In this document: positions 2,411-60,892 of the stretch, piece by piece | How positions within the stretch are numbered: the first letter of the stretch is position 1 | Layout: each line of letters begins with the position of its first letter | Assembly (NCBI GenBank): GCA_016784445.1 | Contig: JADHUR010000002.1 | Location: 31,092-95,091, forward strand | DNA length: 64,000 nucleotides | Reading direction: 5' to 3' | DNA from: Patescibacteria group bacterium | GTDB taxonomy: Bacteria > Patescibacteriota > Patescibacteriia > UBA1558 | The notes under the pieces: generated by a model | Database searches by the model: none | Told to the model about the DNA's origin: nothing | What the model saw: only the letters and a program-made list of their open reading frames with translations | Position numbers and translations under genes: made by a program

Positions 2411-5400
2411 ATGCCAATACATCCACTAGGTGAAAGAAAATATTTCTCACCAAATCGCGACGCTATGCCGCTACCGGATCTTACTCAATTGCAGAAAGAT
2501 TCATATAAATGGTTCTTTGATGAAGGTATTAGAGAGTTGTTTGAAGAGGTTAACCCTATTAGTGATTATATAGGTAGAAACCTTGAACTCTATATGATGG
2601 ATTACTATCTTGATGAGCCTAAGTTTGATGAAGCTACAGCAAGAGATAGAAATATAACCTATGAAGCACCGCTTCGAGTAAAGGTTAAGCTAGTTAATAA
2701 AAAAACTGGTGAAATTAAAGAACAAGAAATATACCTTGGAGATTTTCCATTAATGACAAATAAAGGTACTTTTATTGTTAATGGTGTTGAGAGAGTTGTG
2801 GTGTCCCAGTTGATTAGATCAGCTGGTGCTTTTTTTACCTCAAATTTATACAGAGGAAAGAAATTATACGGAGCAAAGATTATTCCTAACCGTGGTGCAT
2901 GGCTTGAAATTGAAACAGAATCTAATAATGGAATCTTTGTTAAGATAGATAGAAAACGTAAGGTTGCAGTGACTGCACTTCTTAGAGCTTTTGGTTATAG
3001 TACTGATCAAGATATTTTAAGCTTGTTCTCAGATATTGATGAGCCTGCTATTAAGAAATATTTAGAAACAACATTATCAAAAGATACATCTAAAAATGAA
3101 GAAGATGGTTTGATTGAAGTATATAAACGTATTAGACCAGGAGACCTAGCTACTGCCGAAAATGCAAAGAGTCTTATTCATGCTATGTTCTTTAACTTTG
3201 ATCGTTATGACTTTGGACCAGTTGGTAGATATAAATTAAATAAACGTTTTGACACTAATTATCCAATAGATAAAACCAATAGAGTATTACTAGTTGATGA
3301 CTTGGTTAGAATTATTAAAGAAATTATTAGACTAAATGTTACCCAAGATGATGCAGATGATATTGATCACTTAGGTAATAGAAGAATTAGAGCAATCGGT
3401 GAACTTATTCAAAATAAATTTAGAATAGGTCTTGCTCGTATGGAAAGAATTATTAGAGATAGAATGAGTACATTAGATATTCATACTTTAACTCCAAATC
3501 AACTTATTAATGCAAGACCAGTTATTGGCACCATTAAAGAGTTCTTTATGAGTTCACAATTATCTCAGTTCATGGACCAAATTAATCCATTGTCTGAGCT
3601 AGAACATAAGAGACGTCTATCTGCTATGGGACCTGGTGGTCTATCTCGTGAAAGAGCTGGATTTGAAGTTCGTGATGTACATAGAACTCATTATGGACGT
3701 ATTTGTCCTATTGCTACTCCAGAGGGTCCAAATATTGGACTAGTTGGACAGCTAGCCTCTTATGCTAGAGTAAATAAATATGGATTCATTGAAACTCCTT
3801 ATAGAAAAGTTATTAGAAATCCAAAAAATAATACTGCTGATGCTATTGGCTATACATTAAGAGAAGATTTAATAGATACAGATTCTGGTAAAATAGTTGC
3901 TAAAAAAGGAACTAATATAGATGAAAAACTAGCTAAGAATTTAGCAGCTTATGAAAATATTAAAACAATTCCAGTAATACCAGTTATTACAAATGAAATT
4001 GAATATATTGATGCTTTCATTGAAGAAAGATCAACTTCAACAGCAGCCACTACAAAGGTGGATGAGAATGGTCATTTCATTAATGAATTTGCTGAAGTTA
4101 GAAAGAATGGTAGACCATCATTTGAAAGAGTAGAAACAATAGATTATGTTGATGTTTCATCTTATCAAATAATTAGTATATCTACAGCTCTTATTCCATT
4201 CATTGAGAATGATGATGCTGTTAGAGCACTTATGGGAACAAATATGCAAAGGCAGGGTGTCTCTGTTATTAAACCTCAGACCCCTATTATTGGAACTGGC
4301 ATTGAAAGAAAAGCTGCTCTTGATTCAGGTCAAGCAATTGCTGCTAAAGAGGATAGTGAAGTTGTTAAAGTTCAATCTAATTTAATTCAAACTAAAACAA
4401 AAGATGGTCATACTCATGACTATCCTTTAAATAAATTTATGCGTTCTAATGCTGGTACTTCTATCAATCAAAAGCCAATAGTAAATGTTGGAGATAAAGT
4501 TGTGGCCGGCGAGGCTATTGCAGATGGCGCATCAACAGAACATGGAGAATTAGCTCTTGGACAAAATATTTTAGTTGCATATATGACTTGGGATGGTGGT
4601 AATTATGAAGATGCTATTCTAATTTCTGAAAGAGTTGTCGAACAAGATAGATACACTTCAGTGCATATTGAAAATTATTCAATAGATATTAGAGATACAA
4701 AACTTGGACCAGAACTTATTACAAAAGATATTCCTAATGTAGGTGAAGAAAAACTCAAAGATTTAGATGAAGAAGGTATTATTCGTATTGGTGCTCAAGT
4801 TTCATCTGGAGATATTCTAGTTGGTAAGATTACACCAAAGGGTGAAACTGAATTATCTGCAGAAGAAAAATTATTAAGAGCTATCTTTGGCGAAAAAGCT
4901 AAAGACGTTAGAGACACCTCACTTTATCTAGAACATGGTGAGCACGGTAAGGTAATTAATATTAAAATCTTCTCAAGAAAGAATGGAGATAAATTACCAG
5001 CTGGTGTTATTAGATCTGTTCAAGTAACAATAGCTCAATTACGTAAAATTCAAGTTGGAGATAAGATGGCTGGACGTCATGGTAATAAAGGTGTTATTTC
5101 TAGAATCATTCCAGTTGAAGATATGCCTTTCTTAGAAGACGGCACTCCAGTAGATATTGTTCTAAATCCACTTGGTGTTATTTCTCGTATGAACCTTGGA
5201 CAGCTTATGGAAACCCATTTAGGTCTTGCTGCTAAAAAACTAGGTTATAGAGTTGCAACTCCTGCACTTAATGGTGTAAAAGCTGAACAAATTGCAGAAG
5301 AGCTTAAAAAAGCAGGATATCCAGAAGACGGTAAGCTTCAATTATTTGATGGCCGTAATGGACAACCTTTCGATAAAAAGACAACGGTTGGTATTACTTA

Positions 5401-5818
5401 TATGTTAAAACTAAATCACCTTGTTGAAGATAAGATTCACCAACGTTCAATCGGACCTTATTCACTTGTTACTCAACAACCTCTTGGTGGTAAAGCACAA
5501 TTTGGTGGTCAGAGATTCGGTGAGATGGAAGTTTGGGCTTTAGAAGCATATGGAGCTGCTCACATGCTACAAGAAATATTGACTATTAAGTCAGATGATG
5601 TGCCGGGAAGAAGTAAGGCCTATGAAGCAATCATTAAAGGCGAACCAATTGATAAAGTTAATATACCTGAATCATTTAATGTTCTCGTTAGAGAGCTTAA
5701 AGGTTTAGGACTTGATGTTGATCTTATGAAAAATAAGAAATCTGCAAATGATGTAAAAGTTGAAGAAAAGGATGAAGCAGAAGAAACAGAAGACAAGCAA
5801 AAAGAAGACAAAGAATAA
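2411..5818 (+). CDS. rpoB: DNA-directed RNA polymerase subunit beta
   Basis: 1135-aa protein with canonical RpoB motifs throughout (for example [13 protein letters not shown] and [10 protein letters not shown]); acidic C-terminal tail. Confidence 0.97.
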
Positions 5819-38978: not shown

Positions 38979-39007
38979 TTGACATATATACCCCCAGGGG
39001 GTATAAT
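38979..39007 (+). promoter_or_regulatory. consensus promoter TTGACA-17-TATAAT carrying a CsoR-type operator palindrome in its spacer and -10 region
   Basis: ATACCCCCAGGGGGTAT (38988-39004) is a perfect 17-bp palindrome. The -10 element ends 6 nt before the ATG at 39014, which implies a leaderless mRNA. Confidence 0.6.
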
Positions 39008-39013
39008 ACTTTT

Positions 39014-39271
39014 ATGGTAAAAAAAGATATAGAAAATAAGAAATTGAAGTCTAGAGTAGCCCGTATAAAGGGGCAGCTTAATGGCTTAGAACAAATGCTA
39101 GATGATAAAAAAGATTGTCTTGAAATATTGAATCAATTAGCAGCTATTAAAGGTGCCTTGTCTGCCTTGGGACTTGCCATAACCGAAGAAGAAACAGGAT
39201 GCTTACGAATTCATAAGGGGGATGAAAAAAAACTTCAAGATATATTAAATAGATTTTTAAAAATTAATTAA
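39014..39271 (+). CDS. CsoR/RcnR/FrmR-family (DUF156) metal- or thiol-sensing transcriptional repressor
   Basis: 85-aa all-helical protein. The RIKGQLNGLEQML segment matches the family N-terminus. Candidate ligand residues are Cys35, Cys63 and His67 (C-x27-C-x3-H). Confidence 0.75.
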   Translation: MVKKDIENKKLKSRVARIKGQLNGLEQMLDDKKDCLEILNQLAAIKGALSALGLAITEEETGCLRIHKGDEKKLQDILNRFLKIN

Positions 39272-39275
39272 GATT

Positions 39276-40199
39276 ATGAATAAATATGATGTAATAATTA
39301 TTGGCTCAGGGCCAGCTGGTTATTCAGCTGCTATTTATACAACAAGAGCTGAACTTAAAACCTTAATTCTACTTGGTGCTGAAGTCGGGGGACAATTAAC
39401 AACTACTACTGATGTGGAAAATTATCCGGGTTTTCCAGAGGGAATTATGGGGCCAGAATTAATGATGAAAATGAAAGAGCAGGCAGAAAGATTTGGAGCA
39501 GAAACAGTAAGTAAAACAGCAACTAATATAGAAGTAAAAGGAGAAAAAGATTTTATTGTAAAAACAGAAGATGAAAGTTATGCAGCAAAGTCTATTATCA
39601 TTGCAACAGGTGCTTCAGCTAAGTGGCTAGGACTTGAAAGTGAACAAAAATTAAGAGGTCATGGAGTGTCAGCTTGTGCAACTTGTGACGGTTTCTTTTT
39701 TAAAGGGAAAACAATAGCAGTAGTAGGAGCTGGAGATGCTGCTATGGAAGAAGCAAATTTTTTAACAACTTTTGCTACAAAGGTTTATCTACTTGTTCGT
39801 AAAAGTAAAGATGAAATGAAGGCCAGTAAGATTATGCAAGAACGTGCACTTAATAATCCAAAGATTGAGTTTGTTTTTAATACAGAAGTAAAAGAAGTTT
39901 TAGGTGAGAATAAAGTATCTGGGGTTAGGGTTATTAATAATAAAACTAAAGAAGAGAAAGAAATAGAGCTAGAAGGCTTATTTATTGCTATTGGACACAA
40001 GCCTAATACAGATTTTTTAAAGGATGTGGTAAAATTAGACAGCAAAGGCTATCTTGAGATTACAGATAATACAAAGACAAGTCAGGAGGGTATTTTTGCT
40101 GGCGGAGATGTAGCAGATTATAGATATCGCCAGGCAATAACGGCTGCTGGTACCGGATGTATGGCGTCTCTGGATGTAATAAACTATTTAAGTAAATAA
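39276..40199 (+). CDS. trxB: thioredoxin-disulfide reductase
   Basis: GSGPAG FAD-binding motif, CATCDG redox-active disulfide, and a GAGDAAMEEA NADPH-binding motif. Confidence 0.92.
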   Translation: MNKYDVIIIGSGPAGYSAAIYTTRAELKTLILLGAEVGGQLTTTTDVENYPGFPEGIMGPELMMKMKEQAERFGAETVSKTATNIEVKGEKDFIVKTEDESYAAKSIIIATGASAKWLGLESEQKLRGHGVSACATCDGFFFKGKTIAVVGAGDAAMEEANFLTTFATKVYLLVRKSKDEMKASKIMQERALNNPKIEFVFNTEVKEVLGENKVSGVRVINNKTKEEKEIELEGLFIAIGHKPNTDFLKDVVKLDSKGYLEITDNTKTSQEGIFAGGDVADYRYRQAITAAGTGCMASLDVINYLSK

Positions 40200-40222
40200 A
40201 TTAAAAATTAAGAAAAAATATT

Positions 40223-40540
40223 ATGGCAGAATTTGTAACAGATCAAAACTTTGAAGCAGAAGTTTTAAAATCAGACACACCCGTATTAGTAGATTTCTAT
40301 GCAGAATGGTGTGGTCCTTGTAAAATGATGAGTCCAGTTATTGATGAACTTTCAAAAGAATATGAGGGTAAGGTTAAAATAGTTAAACTCAATGTTGATG
40401 AAAATCAGGAGACAGCTGGTAAATATCAAGTTATGAGTATACCAACTTTATTTATTTTTAAGGGTGGAGAGATTGTAGAGCAAATGGTTGGCTTTCAAGA
40501 TAAGAACGCTCTTAAAGATAGAATAGATAATATTAAGTAA
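40223..40540 (+). CDS. trxA: thioredoxin
   Basis: WCGPCK active site; 105 aa. Confidence 0.92.
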   Translation: MAEFVTDQNFEAEVLKSDTPVLVDFYAEWCGPCKMMSPVIDELSKEYEGKVKIVKLNVDENQETAGKYQVMSIPTLFIFKGGEIVEQMVGFQDKNALKDRIDNIK

Positions 40541-40607
40541 TGAATAGATTAAAAAATATTTTGAATTGTAAATAATAACAAATGAGCTGGGTTTAAGGCC
40601 CAGTCTT

Positions 40608-41804
40608 TTGTCGCTATTTAAGGATTATTATTTAAAAAATAATATGGACTATTATAAAGAAAGCTTAAAATTACATAAAGCAAAAAAAGGAAAACTAGAA
40701 GTAAAGTCCAAGGTAAAAATAAAAAACAGGACAGATCTTTCTTTAGCATATACTCCAGGTGTAGCAGAGCCATGTAGAGTTATTGCAAAAGATAAAAATA
40801 AAGTTTATGAGTATACAGCAAAAGCAAACACTGTAGCTGTTATAACTGACGGAAGTGCTGTACTTGGACTTGGGAATATTGGAGCAGAAGCATCTATACC
40901 AGTTATGGAAGGAAAGGCAATTTTATTTAAAGAGTTTGCAGGAATTGATGCGTGGCCAATTGCTCTTGCTAGTCAAGATGTAAAAAAGAACATTGAAACA
41001 ATAAAGAATATTGCACCAATGTTTGGAGGTATAAATCTTGAAGATATTAAAGCGCCAGAGTGTTTTGAAATTGAAAATGCATTGCAAGATTTAGGAATAC
41101 CAGTTATGCATGATGATCAACATGGAACGGCTATTGTAACATTAGCTGCCATTATAAATGGACTTAAAGTTGTTAATAAAAAAATACAGGATGTAAAAAT
41201 TATTTTAAGCGGAGCTGGTTCAGCTGGAATGGCAATAGCAAAATTATTTATAGCATACGGAGTAAATTCAAAAAATATTATAATGCTAGATAGTAAGGGT
41301 GCTTTACATAAAAACAGGAAAGATATAAAAAATAATAAAGCCAAAATAGAAATAGCTAGAATATCCAATGGCAAAAATTTAATTGGTGGCTTAAGAGAGG
41401 TTATTGTTGATGCGGATATATTTATTGGAGTGTCAAAGGGCGGACTATTAAAAGCTCCAATGGTAAGGAAAATGAATAAAGACTCAATTGTAATAGCAAT
41501 GGCAAATCCAATACCAGAAATAATGCCGGATATTGCAAAGTCAGCGGGGGCTAGAATTGTTGCTACTGGAAGGAGCGACTTCCCAAATCAGGTTAATAAT
41601 GTTTTAGCTTTTCCAGGTGTATTTAGGGGAGCTTTAGATATTAGAGCTAGGCAAATAACCACATCAATGAAACTAGAAGCTGCCAAAGCTCTAGCTGATT
41701 GTGTGAGCAGGCCAACAGCTGACAATATCATCCCTAACCCTTTTAATAAGCGTGTGGTGAAATGTGTAGCAAATGCAGTTAAAAAGGAATGGTTGAGAAA
41801 GTAG
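40608..41804 (+). CDS. NAD(P)-dependent malic enzyme (short form)
   Basis: LSLAYTPGVAEPC, ITDGSAVLGLGNIG and GAGSAGMAIA Rossmann motifs. Confidence 0.8.
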   Translation: MSLFKDYYLKNNMDYYKESLKLHKAKKGKLEVKSKVKIKNRTDLSLAYTPGVAEPCRVIAKDKNKVYEYTAKANTVAVITDGSAVLGLGNIGAEASIPVMEGKAILFKEFAGIDAWPIALASQDVKKNIETIKNIAPMFGGINLEDIKAPECFEIENALQDLGIPVMHDDQHGTAIVTLAAIINGLKVVNKKIQDVKIILSGAGSAGMAIAKLFIAYGVNSKNIIMLDSKGALHKNRKDIKNNKAKIEIARISNGKNLIGGLREVIVDADIFIGVSKGGLLKAPMVRKMNKDSIVIAMANPIPEIMPDIAKSAGARIVATGRSDFPNQVNNVLAFPGVFRGALDIRARQITTSMKLEAAKALADCVSRPTADNIIPNPFNKRVVKCVANAVKKEWLRK

Positions 41805-50475: not shown

Positions 50476-50504
50476 TTGACAAATCTATAAATATAGTATA
50501 TAAT
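50476..50504 (+). promoter_or_regulatory. perfect consensus promoter TTGACA-17-TATAAT
   Basis: Hexamers at 50476-50481 and 50499-50504. A strong Shine-Dalgarno sequence (AAGGGAG) lies upstream of the 50550 ATG. Confidence 0.5.
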
Positions 50505-50549: not shown

Positions 50550-50984
50550 ATGGATTATCTTACTTTAGTGGGAGTTTTATCGTTATTAATGGTACTTACG
50601 AGAGTTGTTTTAGTAGCTAAGTATTCTTATTGGAAGATTATGTTTGAAAAAGCTTATTCAGCTCAGCAAGACGTTCCTGTTGTTGGTTATTCATCTTTAG
50701 GATGCAAACAGGAGACTCGGGAATTTAGCGAGTTGGTGGGTAAGTTGAATAAAATGGGATATTTATTCCAGCAAACATGGTGTCATGCTCCTGTAATACA
50801 GAGGGTGTATCGGCCGCTAACTTCAATTGATTCTAGCGTGATGGATGTAAAAGATATTATATGTACTTATGGTATAAGTATATTATTTTTCAGTCTAATT
50901 GCTGTTTCAATTTTTCTTGAGATTAACCTCTTTGTATTAATTGCAATAGTTGGTACCTTTAAGATGATTAGTATAGCTGAGTAG
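50550..50984 (+). CDS. hypothetical membrane protein (G+C-elevated cassette, gene 1)
   Basis: 144 aa: an N-terminal TM helix, a Cys-containing soluble middle, and 2 C-terminal TM helices. Confidence 0.4.
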   Translation: MDYLTLVGVLSLLMVLTRVVLVAKYSYWKIMFEKAYSAQQDVPVVGYSSLGCKQETREFSELVGKLNKMGYLFQQTWCHAPVIQRVYRPLTSIDSSVMDVKDIICTYGISILFFSLIAVSIFLEINLFVLIAIVGTFKMISIAE

Positions 50985-57378: not shown

Positions 57379-57471
57379 CCTAAATTGATCATTAATAATT
57401 GCATAGGTAACATAACGAGCATTTGTAATAAAAATAAATGTGCTACTTTTAGTAACCTAGCCAAAATATTT

Positions 57472-60597
<3,126 letters not shown>

Positions 60598-60775
60598 ATT
60601 ATTTTGTTTAGGTTAAATAAAATAATAACTAAAAGTAAAAGTTATGTTACCTTATACAGGCAGTATTAAGCTTGTAATGGTGTTTATTTTCTTAATAGCC
60701 ATCATATGTGTTAGTTTCATCGTATTTCCTATAATATAATCGTCGGTAGTTAGTTAATAATATATTGTTAATTAG

Positions 60776-60892
60776 CTTCCGGTGATTCTTGCGAAGGGGA
60801 AACACCCGATCCCATTTCGAACTCGGTAGTTAAGCTCTTCAGCGCCGATGATACTTGCCCCTGTGGTGTGGGAAAGTAGGCCATTGCCGGTT
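60776..60892 (+). rRNA. 5S ribosomal RNA
   Basis: ccgatcccatttcgaactcggtagttaagc...gtgggaaagtaggc matches the bacterial 5S core; the ends are approximate. Confidence 0.8.

Follow-up and report, generated by a model that had tools for sequence, protein, structure and literature searches.

A 64-kb stretch of DNA from an uncultured Patescibacteria group bacterium (GCA_016784445.1, contig JADHUR010000002.1, positions 31,092 to 95,091; hereafter the window, 64,000 nucleotides) encodes a predicted repressor of the CsoR/RcnR family directly upstream of genes for thioredoxin-disulfide reductase (trxB) and thioredoxin (trxA). Probably, this repressor and a palindrome in its own promoter form an autoregulated repressor-operator switch that governs the cell's thioredoxin system. 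The evidence comes from the operator, from two invariant cysteine residues in the protein, and from the recurrence of the thioredoxin linkage among relatives.

The promoter and its palindrome

Directly ahead of the regulator gene, the sequence reads as a perfect sigma-70-type consensus promoter, TTGACA-17-TATAAT (38979-39007). Within it lies a perfect 17-bp palindrome, ATACCCCCAGGGGGTAT (38988-39004), which is part of a larger 19-bp palindrome, TATACCCCCAGGGGGTATA (38987-39005; Table 1). A preliminary description of this stretch had reported the 17-bp palindrome and its promoter, a −10 element ending 6 nt before the ATG, the membership of the regulator in the CsoR (DUF156) family, and the resemblance of the palindrome to a cognate operator. 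The first three are borne out here, with the palindrome now extended to 19 bp; the fourth gains sequence support from its invariance in orthologous lineages and from a similar operator characterized elsewhere.

Neither palindrome nor promoter is a chance feature of the window, whose G+C content is 34%. Allowing up to three mismatches, the palindrome has one occurrence in the whole window, where shuffled sequences predict 0.04; a looser search of the window for TACCC-N5-GGGTA found no second credible site; and the only paired C5 and G5 tracts in the window are those of the palindrome. Perfect 12/12 promoters number two in the window, against 0.17 expected from first-order Markov randomizations. 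The other one (50476-50504) lies 45 nt upstream of a 144-residue open reading frame that starts at 50550.

Comparison with orthologous loci reveals strong conservation. In seven lineages, the operator core ahead of the ortholog, ATACCCC..GGGGTATA, does not vary, and the flanking intergenic sequence shows about 60% mean column identity. Two geometries are found. In the first (the window, L006, and L011), the operator occupies the spacer and −10 element of a TTGACA-17-TATAAT or TATACT promoter, and the −10 element ends 6 nt before the ATG. In the second (L007, L010, L013, and L030), the promoter, TTGACA-17-TACAAT, TATATT, or TATAAT, is further upstream, and the operator overlaps the predicted start site and the beginning of the transcript. 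An operator at either position would block RNA polymerase.

Beyond the orthologs, a TACCC-N5-GGGTA site lies upstream of nearly every related regulator gene retrieved, and the motif follows the regulator gene across phyla. The Streptococcus mitis cst operator used in binding assays, ATATACCCTTATGGGGTATAT, is of the same type as the window palindrome (PMC8643695), and operators of the family are in general pseudo-palindromes whose G/C tract is four or longer (PMC10318464). The window palindrome conforms: it is a G/C-tract pseudo-palindrome that adjoins its own gene and is kept in orthologs. These features support its designation as the putative cognate operator of the regulator.

Some more distant thioredoxin-linked relatives depart from this rule. 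Palindromes without a G/C tract lie in L069 (at about 880-910; ATATACTATACT-TG-AGTATAGTATAT) and upstream of the regulator in L071 and L072. Operator specificity apparently drifted within the thioredoxin-linked set.

Might the palindrome act primarily at the RNA level, as a hairpin that ends the upstream ydjM transcript, rather than as a protein operator? It begins 10 nt past the ydjM stop codon, a scan flags an 8-bp stem with four G-C pairs followed by ATACTTTTAT, and the minimum free energy of the RNA fold is −10.7 kcal/mol. Such a fold is nevertheless unexceptional for the composition (z = −1.24; 24 of 200 shuffled sequences are at least as stable), and the T-run is both short and offset from the stem. 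Moreover, the motif accompanies the regulator gene across phyla, including at the L032 regulator, where the upstream gene is divergent, and in Syntrophomonadaceae, where a leader that contains a Shine-Dalgarno (SD) sequence but no T-run follows the motif. A primary role in termination is therefore very improbable, and "ydjM terminator only" was rejected as the main role on the basis of the fold statistic and the association of the motif with the regulator gene. A dual operator and terminator role is possible and is compatible with the switch. (An Rfam scan of 38.9-40.6 kb found no RNA family.)

The promoter also bears on translation. The A of the ATG lies 7 nt past the −10 element, a canonical start-site spacing, and the same arrangement is present in L006 and L011. 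For the other strong promoters of the window, the distance to the ATG is 18-105 nt, so this leaderless-type geometry is particular to the regulator gene. An SD motif (GGAG, GAGG, or AGGA at −18 to −4) precedes only 3 of the 35 open reading frames of at least 150 codons in the window; in place of such a motif, the sequence ahead of the start codons is rich in A and T. This genome appears to initiate translation mostly without SD sequences. Absence of an SD motif at the regulator gene is uninformative in a genome that hardly uses one, and the argument from its absence to a leaderless start was dropped. Promoter geometry alone makes a leaderless mRNA plausible.

The regulator and its candidate sensing residues

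The 85-residue regulator matches PF02583 (DUF156) with 63.6 bits (cut-off 22.8). Its AlphaFold2 (AF2) monomer model (predicted local distance difference test, 82.6) contains helices at residues 2-30, 35-60, and 68-82, and its top 19 Foldseek matches in the PDB all belong to the CsoR family (CsoR, FrmR, InrS, or CstR; TM 0.6-0.7). No specific NCBIfam model applies: the best matches, RcnR, FrmR, and RicR, are far under their cut-offs (FrmR, 49.3 versus 133 bits). The best single-sequence PDB match is the Cu(I)-CsoR structure 4m1p. A tblastn search against plasmids returned distant FrmR/RcnR-type genes only, and was uninformative.

Members of this family are distinguished by residues at four fingerprint positions, W, X, Y, and Z. 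Three alignments set the register: one of the single sequence and one of the profile to solved structures, and a MAFFT alignment of the chain segments from those searches. Cys35 occupies X, aligned with the X Cys of all references. Cys63 occupies Z: in all three, it falls opposite the Z Cys of Geobacillus thermodenitrificans CsoR (GtCsoR) and of Synechocystis InrS, and opposite Cys59 of Streptococcus pneumoniae CstR (SpCstR). The Y column holds Glu60, in place of the His of metal sensors and of the wedge residue Asn55 in SpCstR, and one residue is deleted between Y and Z in the window regulator. The amino terminus, MVKKD, contains neither a His for position W nor Pro2, residue 2 being Val. These assignments give the fingerprint x-C-E-C. 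As aligned with the CsoR, InrS, and CstR structures, a check proposed at the outset, this is a CstR-like dithiol pair without the metal-type His.

Conservation singles out the same residues. Cys35, Glu60, Thr61, and Cys63 are invariant among orthologs, and Cys35, Glu60, and Cys63 remain so in a 15-sequence alignment that extends down to 37% identity. Cys35 and Cys63 are the only invariant candidate sensing residues. In the AF2 model, Cys35 lies at the start of helix 2, and both Cys63 and His67 lie in the loop between helices 2 and 3.

The preliminary description had named Cys35, Cys63, and His67 as an atypical three-ligand (C-C-H) set. All three residues exist at those positions in the window protein, and the spacing of Cys63 and His67 is i, i+4. 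However, His67 is shared by only two orthologs, P0001 and P0002 (the window protein and a relative at 92% identity), the other 8 of 10 having Asn, Ser, Lys, or Asp instead; its place in the AF2 model is the interhelical loop; and Cys63 aligns with solved structures at Z, not Y. The residue positions stand, but a C-C-H site is extremely improbable.

Nor does the fingerprint match that of other characterized sensors. The Ni-Co pattern of RcnR and InrS (H-C-H-H or H-C-H-C) is absent, as there is no amino-terminal His and Y is Glu; the formaldehyde pattern of FrmR (P-C-H-x) is absent, given Val2 and the same Glu; and the Cu(I)-CsoR pattern (x-C-H-C) is absent, with no His at Y and no Tyr at X−1. 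In Mycobacterium tuberculosis CsoR, the Tyr that precedes Cys X is a second-shell network residue. The window protein has Asp34 at this position, as does SpCstR, whereas GtCsoR has Tyr.

These differences bear on the idea of a Cu(I) sensor with a two-thiolate site, which would induce thioredoxin against copper-driven thiol damage. The operator is of the same type as Cu-CsoR operators, 4m1p is the top single-sequence match, and trxA-linked relatives in Syntrophomonadaceae carry the full x-C-H-C fingerprint. Y is nonetheless Glu rather than His, X−1 is Asp rather than Tyr, and the 8-kb neighborhood is without copA or copZ: no HMA domain or P-type ATPase is present among the called genes about 4 kb to either side, in line with the first impression that copper efflux genes are missing. 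Furthermore, CstR, which shares the Cys pair, has weak affinity for Cu(I) and shows no cellular response to it (PMC8643695, PMC11672702). Copper sensing by the window regulator is accordingly improbable.

The thioredoxin operon and its relatives

In the window, trxB begins 4 nt past the regulator stop codon, and trxA follows after a further 23 nt; the gene assignments made in the preliminary description hold (TIGR01292 and TIGR01068), but its spacings of 5 and 24 nt do not. A promoter and terminator scan found no promoter-like site between the regulator's promoter and trxB. Sequence arrangement thus supports co-transcription of regulator, trxB, and trxA.

Table 1. Coordinates of the regulator locus and its neighboring features in the window
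Feature	Position	Strand	Basis or remarks
−35 hexamer TTGACA	38979..38984	+	12/12 promoter match; upstream TTGACA kept in all orthologous loci
Putative operator, 19-bp palindrome, core ATACCCC-N3-GGGGTAT	38987..39005	.	Unique in window; fills promoter spacer and first 4 nt of −10 hexamer
−10 hexamer TATAAT	39002..39007	+	12/12 promoter match; ends 6 nt (ACTTTT) ahead of ATG at 39014
CsoR/RcnR-family repressor (predicted), 85 residues, x-C-E-C	39014..39271	+	PF02583, AF2 model, Foldseek, alignments
trxB, thioredoxin-disulfide reductase	39276..40199	+	TIGR01292, 397.8 bits (cut-off 343.45); CATC motif; Pyr_redox_2
trxA, thioredoxin	40223..40540	+	TIGR01068, 140.5 bits (cut-off 96.8); PF00085; WCGPC
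Apparent relic of deleted glutamate dehydrogenase 5′ end, with terminator-like hairpin (40586-40604)	40541..40643	+	Aligns with gdh coding sequence of 93%-identical relative L028
Malic enzyme, NAD(P)H-producing dehydrogenase	40644..41804	+	PF00390 and PF03949

Linkage in other organisms was assessed through genome and metagenome scans, context look-ups, and an exhaustive profile search of 1.84 billion representatives. The search returned 5161 family matches, with score drops from 140 to 104 bits and from 101 to 78 bits; these drops mark the orthologs and their sister group as a small, tight clade. A 77%-identical protein comes from Candidatus Komeilibacteria, and the orthologs as a group (64-99% identical) share the synteny of ydjM followed by regulator-trxB-trxA. 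The pairing with thioredoxin genes, first regarded as unusual for the family, is genuine, and it recurs outside the window in a thioredoxin-linked subfamily (Table 2).

Table 2. Gene order and thioredoxin linkage among relatives of the window regulator (reg, regulator; CPR, candidate phyla radiation)
Group	Identity	Fingerprint or motif	Gene order	Linked to trx
A, orthologs (Komeilibacteria-like)	64-99%	x-C-E-C	reg-trxB-trxA; most lineages have gdh and/or malic enzyme downstream of trxA	8/8 lineages
B, Candidatus Falkowbacteria, 81 residues	48-57%	Gln-Glu-Thr-x-Cys	reg-trxA-trxB or reg-gdh-trxA-trxB	4/5 lineages
Candidatus Kerfeldbacteria (P0023)		His-Asp-Glu-Thr-Ser-Tyr-Cys	reg-trxA-trxB-gdh-rnhB	yes
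Other nearest representatives (P0014, P0016, P0020, P0021)	37-44% (P0020 excluded)	E-x-x-C (P0020, E-x-x-x-C)	reg-trxA or reg-(Trx-Grx fusion)-trxB	4/4 sampled
C, Syntrophomonadaceae	34-39%	x-C-H-C; Asp, Asn, or Glu before Cys X	operator, SD, reg-trxA bicistron	13/13 distinct sequences
E, Anaerolineae	~38%	x-C-x-C	operator-trxA-trx-like-Zn-ribbon-reg	2/2 informative loci
Controls: CPR x-C-H-H, RcnR-like H-C-H-H, actinobacterial CsoR			same operator type upstream	none

This linkage survives repeated reshuffling of gene order, a classical signature that argues for functional coupling between the regulator and the thioredoxin genes. Against the ortholog profile, group B scores about 100 bits, group C about 63, group E about 48, and the non-trx controls about 50. 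Monophyly of all the thioredoxin-linked groups was considered and is unsupported by these scores. Group E is no closer to the profile than are the controls, so the linkage is either ancient or arose more than once.

Individual loci add detail. In Syntrophomonadaceae (L037-L049, L053, L057, L058, L062, and L068), a TTGACA-17-TATAAT promoter and a GATACCC-N-GGGGTATA operator precede the SD sequence and the regulator-trxA bicistron. In L070 (489-1073), a 194-residue thioredoxin-glutaredoxin fusion (CQPC, CPWC) is encoded between a related x-C-E-C regulator and trxB.

Dehydrogenase genes are recurrent members of the cluster. Glutamate dehydrogenase (GDH; gdh) is found with the trx genes at L006, L010, L011, L028, L031-L036, and L073, and malic enzyme is found in the window; L006 and L010 have both, with gaps of 0-3 nt. 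Tight clustering of GDH and malic enzyme genes with trxB and trxA in three CPR classes, and in varied orders, suggests a dedicated reductant-supply module for thioredoxin reductase.

How the window came by its own version of the cluster is suggested by the 93%-identical relative L028, in which a gene for a 404-residue glutamate dehydrogenase (4527-5741) overlaps the trxA stop codon in the slot of the window's malic enzyme gene. More distant relatives carry both genes, and by this comparison malic enzyme appears to be part of an ancestral reg-trxB-trxA-gdh-mae cluster. The trxA-mae spacer of the window aligns with the 5′ coding part of L028 gdh, and so the hairpin within it looks like a relic of gdh deletion, strengthened by G-C pairs. 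This hairpin probably forms the 3′ end of the operon in this genome, which makes co-transcription of the malic enzyme gene uncertain.

Other features of the window may be noted briefly. In Escherichia coli TrxB, the motif for the NADPH 2′-phosphate is HRRxxxR. The window TrxB has VRKSKDEMK in place of HRRDxFR at residues ~170-185, which raised the idea of an unusual cofactor specificity (NADPH versus NADH), but the basic residues seem to be kept, as judged by eye. A 23S rRNA match (57470-60600) spans 3131 nt against a model of 2925 positions and may hold insertions of about 200 nt; the 5S rRNA gene (60778-60892) follows it. No 16S rRNA gene was found anywhere in the 64 kb, and the rRNA genes are therefore apparently unlinked.

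A proposed thioredoxin switch and its inducer

The proposed switch would operate as follows. Reduced regulator, as the dimer of dimers typical of the family, would bind the palindrome and stop RNA polymerase. As elsewhere in the family, Cys35, at the start of helix 2, and Cys63′, past helix 2 of the partner protomer, would form the sensory pair across the dimer interface. Oxidants (disulfide stress or peroxide) or reactive sulfur species could crosslink this pair as di-, tri-, or tetrasulfides, as happens in CstR, lowering DNA affinity and derepressing the operon, with transcription starting at the A of the ATG. Induced TrxB and TrxA, together with NAD(P)H from the clustered GDH and malic enzyme, would restore thiol redox balance. 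Finally, TrxB and TrxA would probably re-reduce the repressor to close a negative feedback loop. In the RsrA-SigR system, thioredoxin resets the sensor, a homeostat topology like that proposed here, and RexT with trxA2 offers a comparable homeostat (PMC8960804).

The inducer may be reactive oxygen species and disulfide stress or else persulfide, which sequence tools do not separate. The latter choice would make the regulator a CstR-type sensor specific for persulfide, with thioredoxin induced as a persulfide or polysulfide reductase in sulfidic habitats rather than in response to general oxidative or disulfide stress. Its fingerprint would be apt: x-C-x-C marks three persulfide-sensor clusters (3, 4, and 10) in the sequence similarity network (SSN) of the superfamily (PMC8643695), and Asp precedes Cys X as in SpCstR. 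Orthologs P0009 and P0010 also have a CstR-wedge-like Asn at Z−4; relatives come from sediment and hydrothermal-vent metagenomes; and thioredoxin-like proteins of Staphylococcus aureus are reported in one study to reduce protein persulfides (PMC6196236). The gene content is different, however. Rhodanese, SQR, CoA-persulfide reductase, and the sulfite exporter TauE are encoded at none of the examined loci. A wedge Asn at Y (x-C-N-C) is the criterion for firmicute CstR (PMC11672702), whereas here an invariant Glu-Thr-x-Cys stands in its stead; the Z−4 residue is Glu59 in the window protein and Glu, Asp, Asn, Gln, or Arg among relatives, with Asn only in P0009 and P0010. Moreover, CstR reacts also with H2O2 in vitro (PMC11672702), so thiol chemistry by itself does not discriminate between persulfide and oxidant. 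The missing sulfur-detoxification genes and the substitution of Glu-Thr-x-Cys for the wedge Asn argue against a standard CstR, and habitat and the x-C-x-C pattern keep the persulfide option alive. Persulfide specificity is thus possible but doubtful.

Several observations weigh against the thioredoxin switch, or against a CstR-like mechanism for it. The operator search in this genome covered the 64-kb window. The ortholog profile scores 56.3 bits with InrS, 55.5 with GtCsoR, and 51.5 with SpCstR; since CstR does not score above the metal sensors, similarity lends persulfide chemistry no specific support. The wedge Asn of firmicute CstRs is absent from the window regulator, which has Glu instead, and no sulfurtransferase or SQR gene lies near the regulator, the neighbors being ydjM, trxB, trxA, gdh, and malic enzyme. 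In Syntrophomonadaceae, the trxA-linked regulators keep His at Y, which leaves room for metal input to thioredoxin control in the wider set: thioredoxin in that family is under copper control, or else the fingerprint is misleading. The leaderless geometry is present in only three of seven lineages, the other four implying a leader of about 25-35 nt. Finally, DNA binding, the inducer, and thioredoxin-mediated reset are inferred for every member of the set.

A more specific proposal goes beyond the switch itself, and is tentative, being somewhat more apt to fail than to hold. The x-C-E-C clade, marked by Glu-Thr-x-Cys, would be an as yet uncharacterized, oxidant- and disulfide-specific branch of the CsoR family, acting as a minimal, self-resetting thioredoxin homeostat with repressor, TrxB, TrxA, and NAD(P)H dehydrogenase in one operon. 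It would be a main redox-stress circuit in several Patescibacteria classes, with convergent or ancient counterparts in Syntrophomonadaceae and Anaerolineae.

Known systems offer points of comparison. CstR (S. aureus, Enterococcus faecalis, and S. pneumoniae/S. mitis; PMC8643695) likewise is a PF02583 three-helix protein of about 85 residues, with Cys at X and Z, no His at Y, and Asp before Cys X; the promoter that drives its operon contains an operator of the ATATACCC-N-GGGGTATAT type. Dithiol crosslinking of CstR abolishes operator binding (PMC8643695), and an interprotomer Cys-Cys crosslink is presumed to be the off-switch for the window regulator as well. The regulons are distinct: trxB and trxA, with or without gdh and malic enzyme, versus rhodaneses, SQR, CoA-persulfide reductase, and TauE. 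The window protein also has an invariant Glu at Y within Glu-Thr-x-Cys, the one-residue deletion, and a shorter loop between helices 2 and 3, and belongs to a separate clade hosted by Patescibacteria, for which SpCstR is not a nearer match than InrS or CsoR. With Cu(I)-CsoR (M. tuberculosis, Bacillus subtilis, and G. thermodenitrificans 4m1p), the window regulator shares family, fold, Cys at X and Z, a GC-tract operator over the promoter, and, as predicted, autoregulation, but not the His at Y, the Tyr at X−1, nearby copA or copZ, or the target, here the thioredoxin system.

Thiol-based control by a non-metal route is represented within the CsoR family by TTHA1953, the Sox regulator of Thermus thermophilus, in which a disulfide lowers DNA binding (PMC10318464). 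TTHA1953 differs in its targets, which are distant Sox genes, and in its operator, which has no G/C tract; it also has no linkage to thioredoxin genes. Outside the family, the closest parallel in logic is RexT of Nostoc, also a metal-sensor-family repressor turned Cys redox switch, which senses H2O2 and derepresses a thioredoxin gene, trxA2 (PMC8960804); it is an ArsR-SmtB winged-helix protein with another operator, and is experimentally characterized. RsrA-SigR of Streptomyces (PMC4960319) and Spx of Bacillus (PMC3479203) similarly are thiol switches that induce trxB and trxA under disulfide stress, but they are, respectively, an anti-sigma factor and an activator that binds RNA polymerase. 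These unrelated proteins are not DNA-binding repressors.

Earlier work had established the CsoR family, this type of operator, and the dithiol switch. What appears undescribed is the x-C-E-C clade, its pairing with the thioredoxin system and with NAD(P)H-producing dehydrogenases, and its prevalence in Patescibacteria. Full-text searches of one literature library found no paper tying a CsoR-family regulator to trxA or trxB. The paper on the superfamily SSN nowhere uses the word "thioredoxin" in its main text and leaves clusters 6-9 uncharacterized (PMC8643695). According to a 2024 review, no H2O2-specific CsoR-family sensor has been characterized. The nearest relatives of the window regulator are candidates for an undescribed redox-sensing branch of the family.

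In the CsoR superfamily, a single small scaffold has given rise to sensors of copper, nickel or cobalt, formaldehyde, and persulfide, which makes it a model for the evolution of inducer specificity. A compact clade with TrxB and TrxA as its only conserved partners is an obvious candidate for the missing comparator. Moreover, a small protein, a defined 19-bp site, and two defined cysteines allow a direct test in vitro, with no need to grow the host.

For Patescibacteria (CPR) organisms, whose stress responses are, to our knowledge, essentially unknown, the thioredoxin switch would be among the few concrete regulatory circuits predicted, and it points to GDH and malic enzyme as the dedicated reductant supply for their thioredoxin system.

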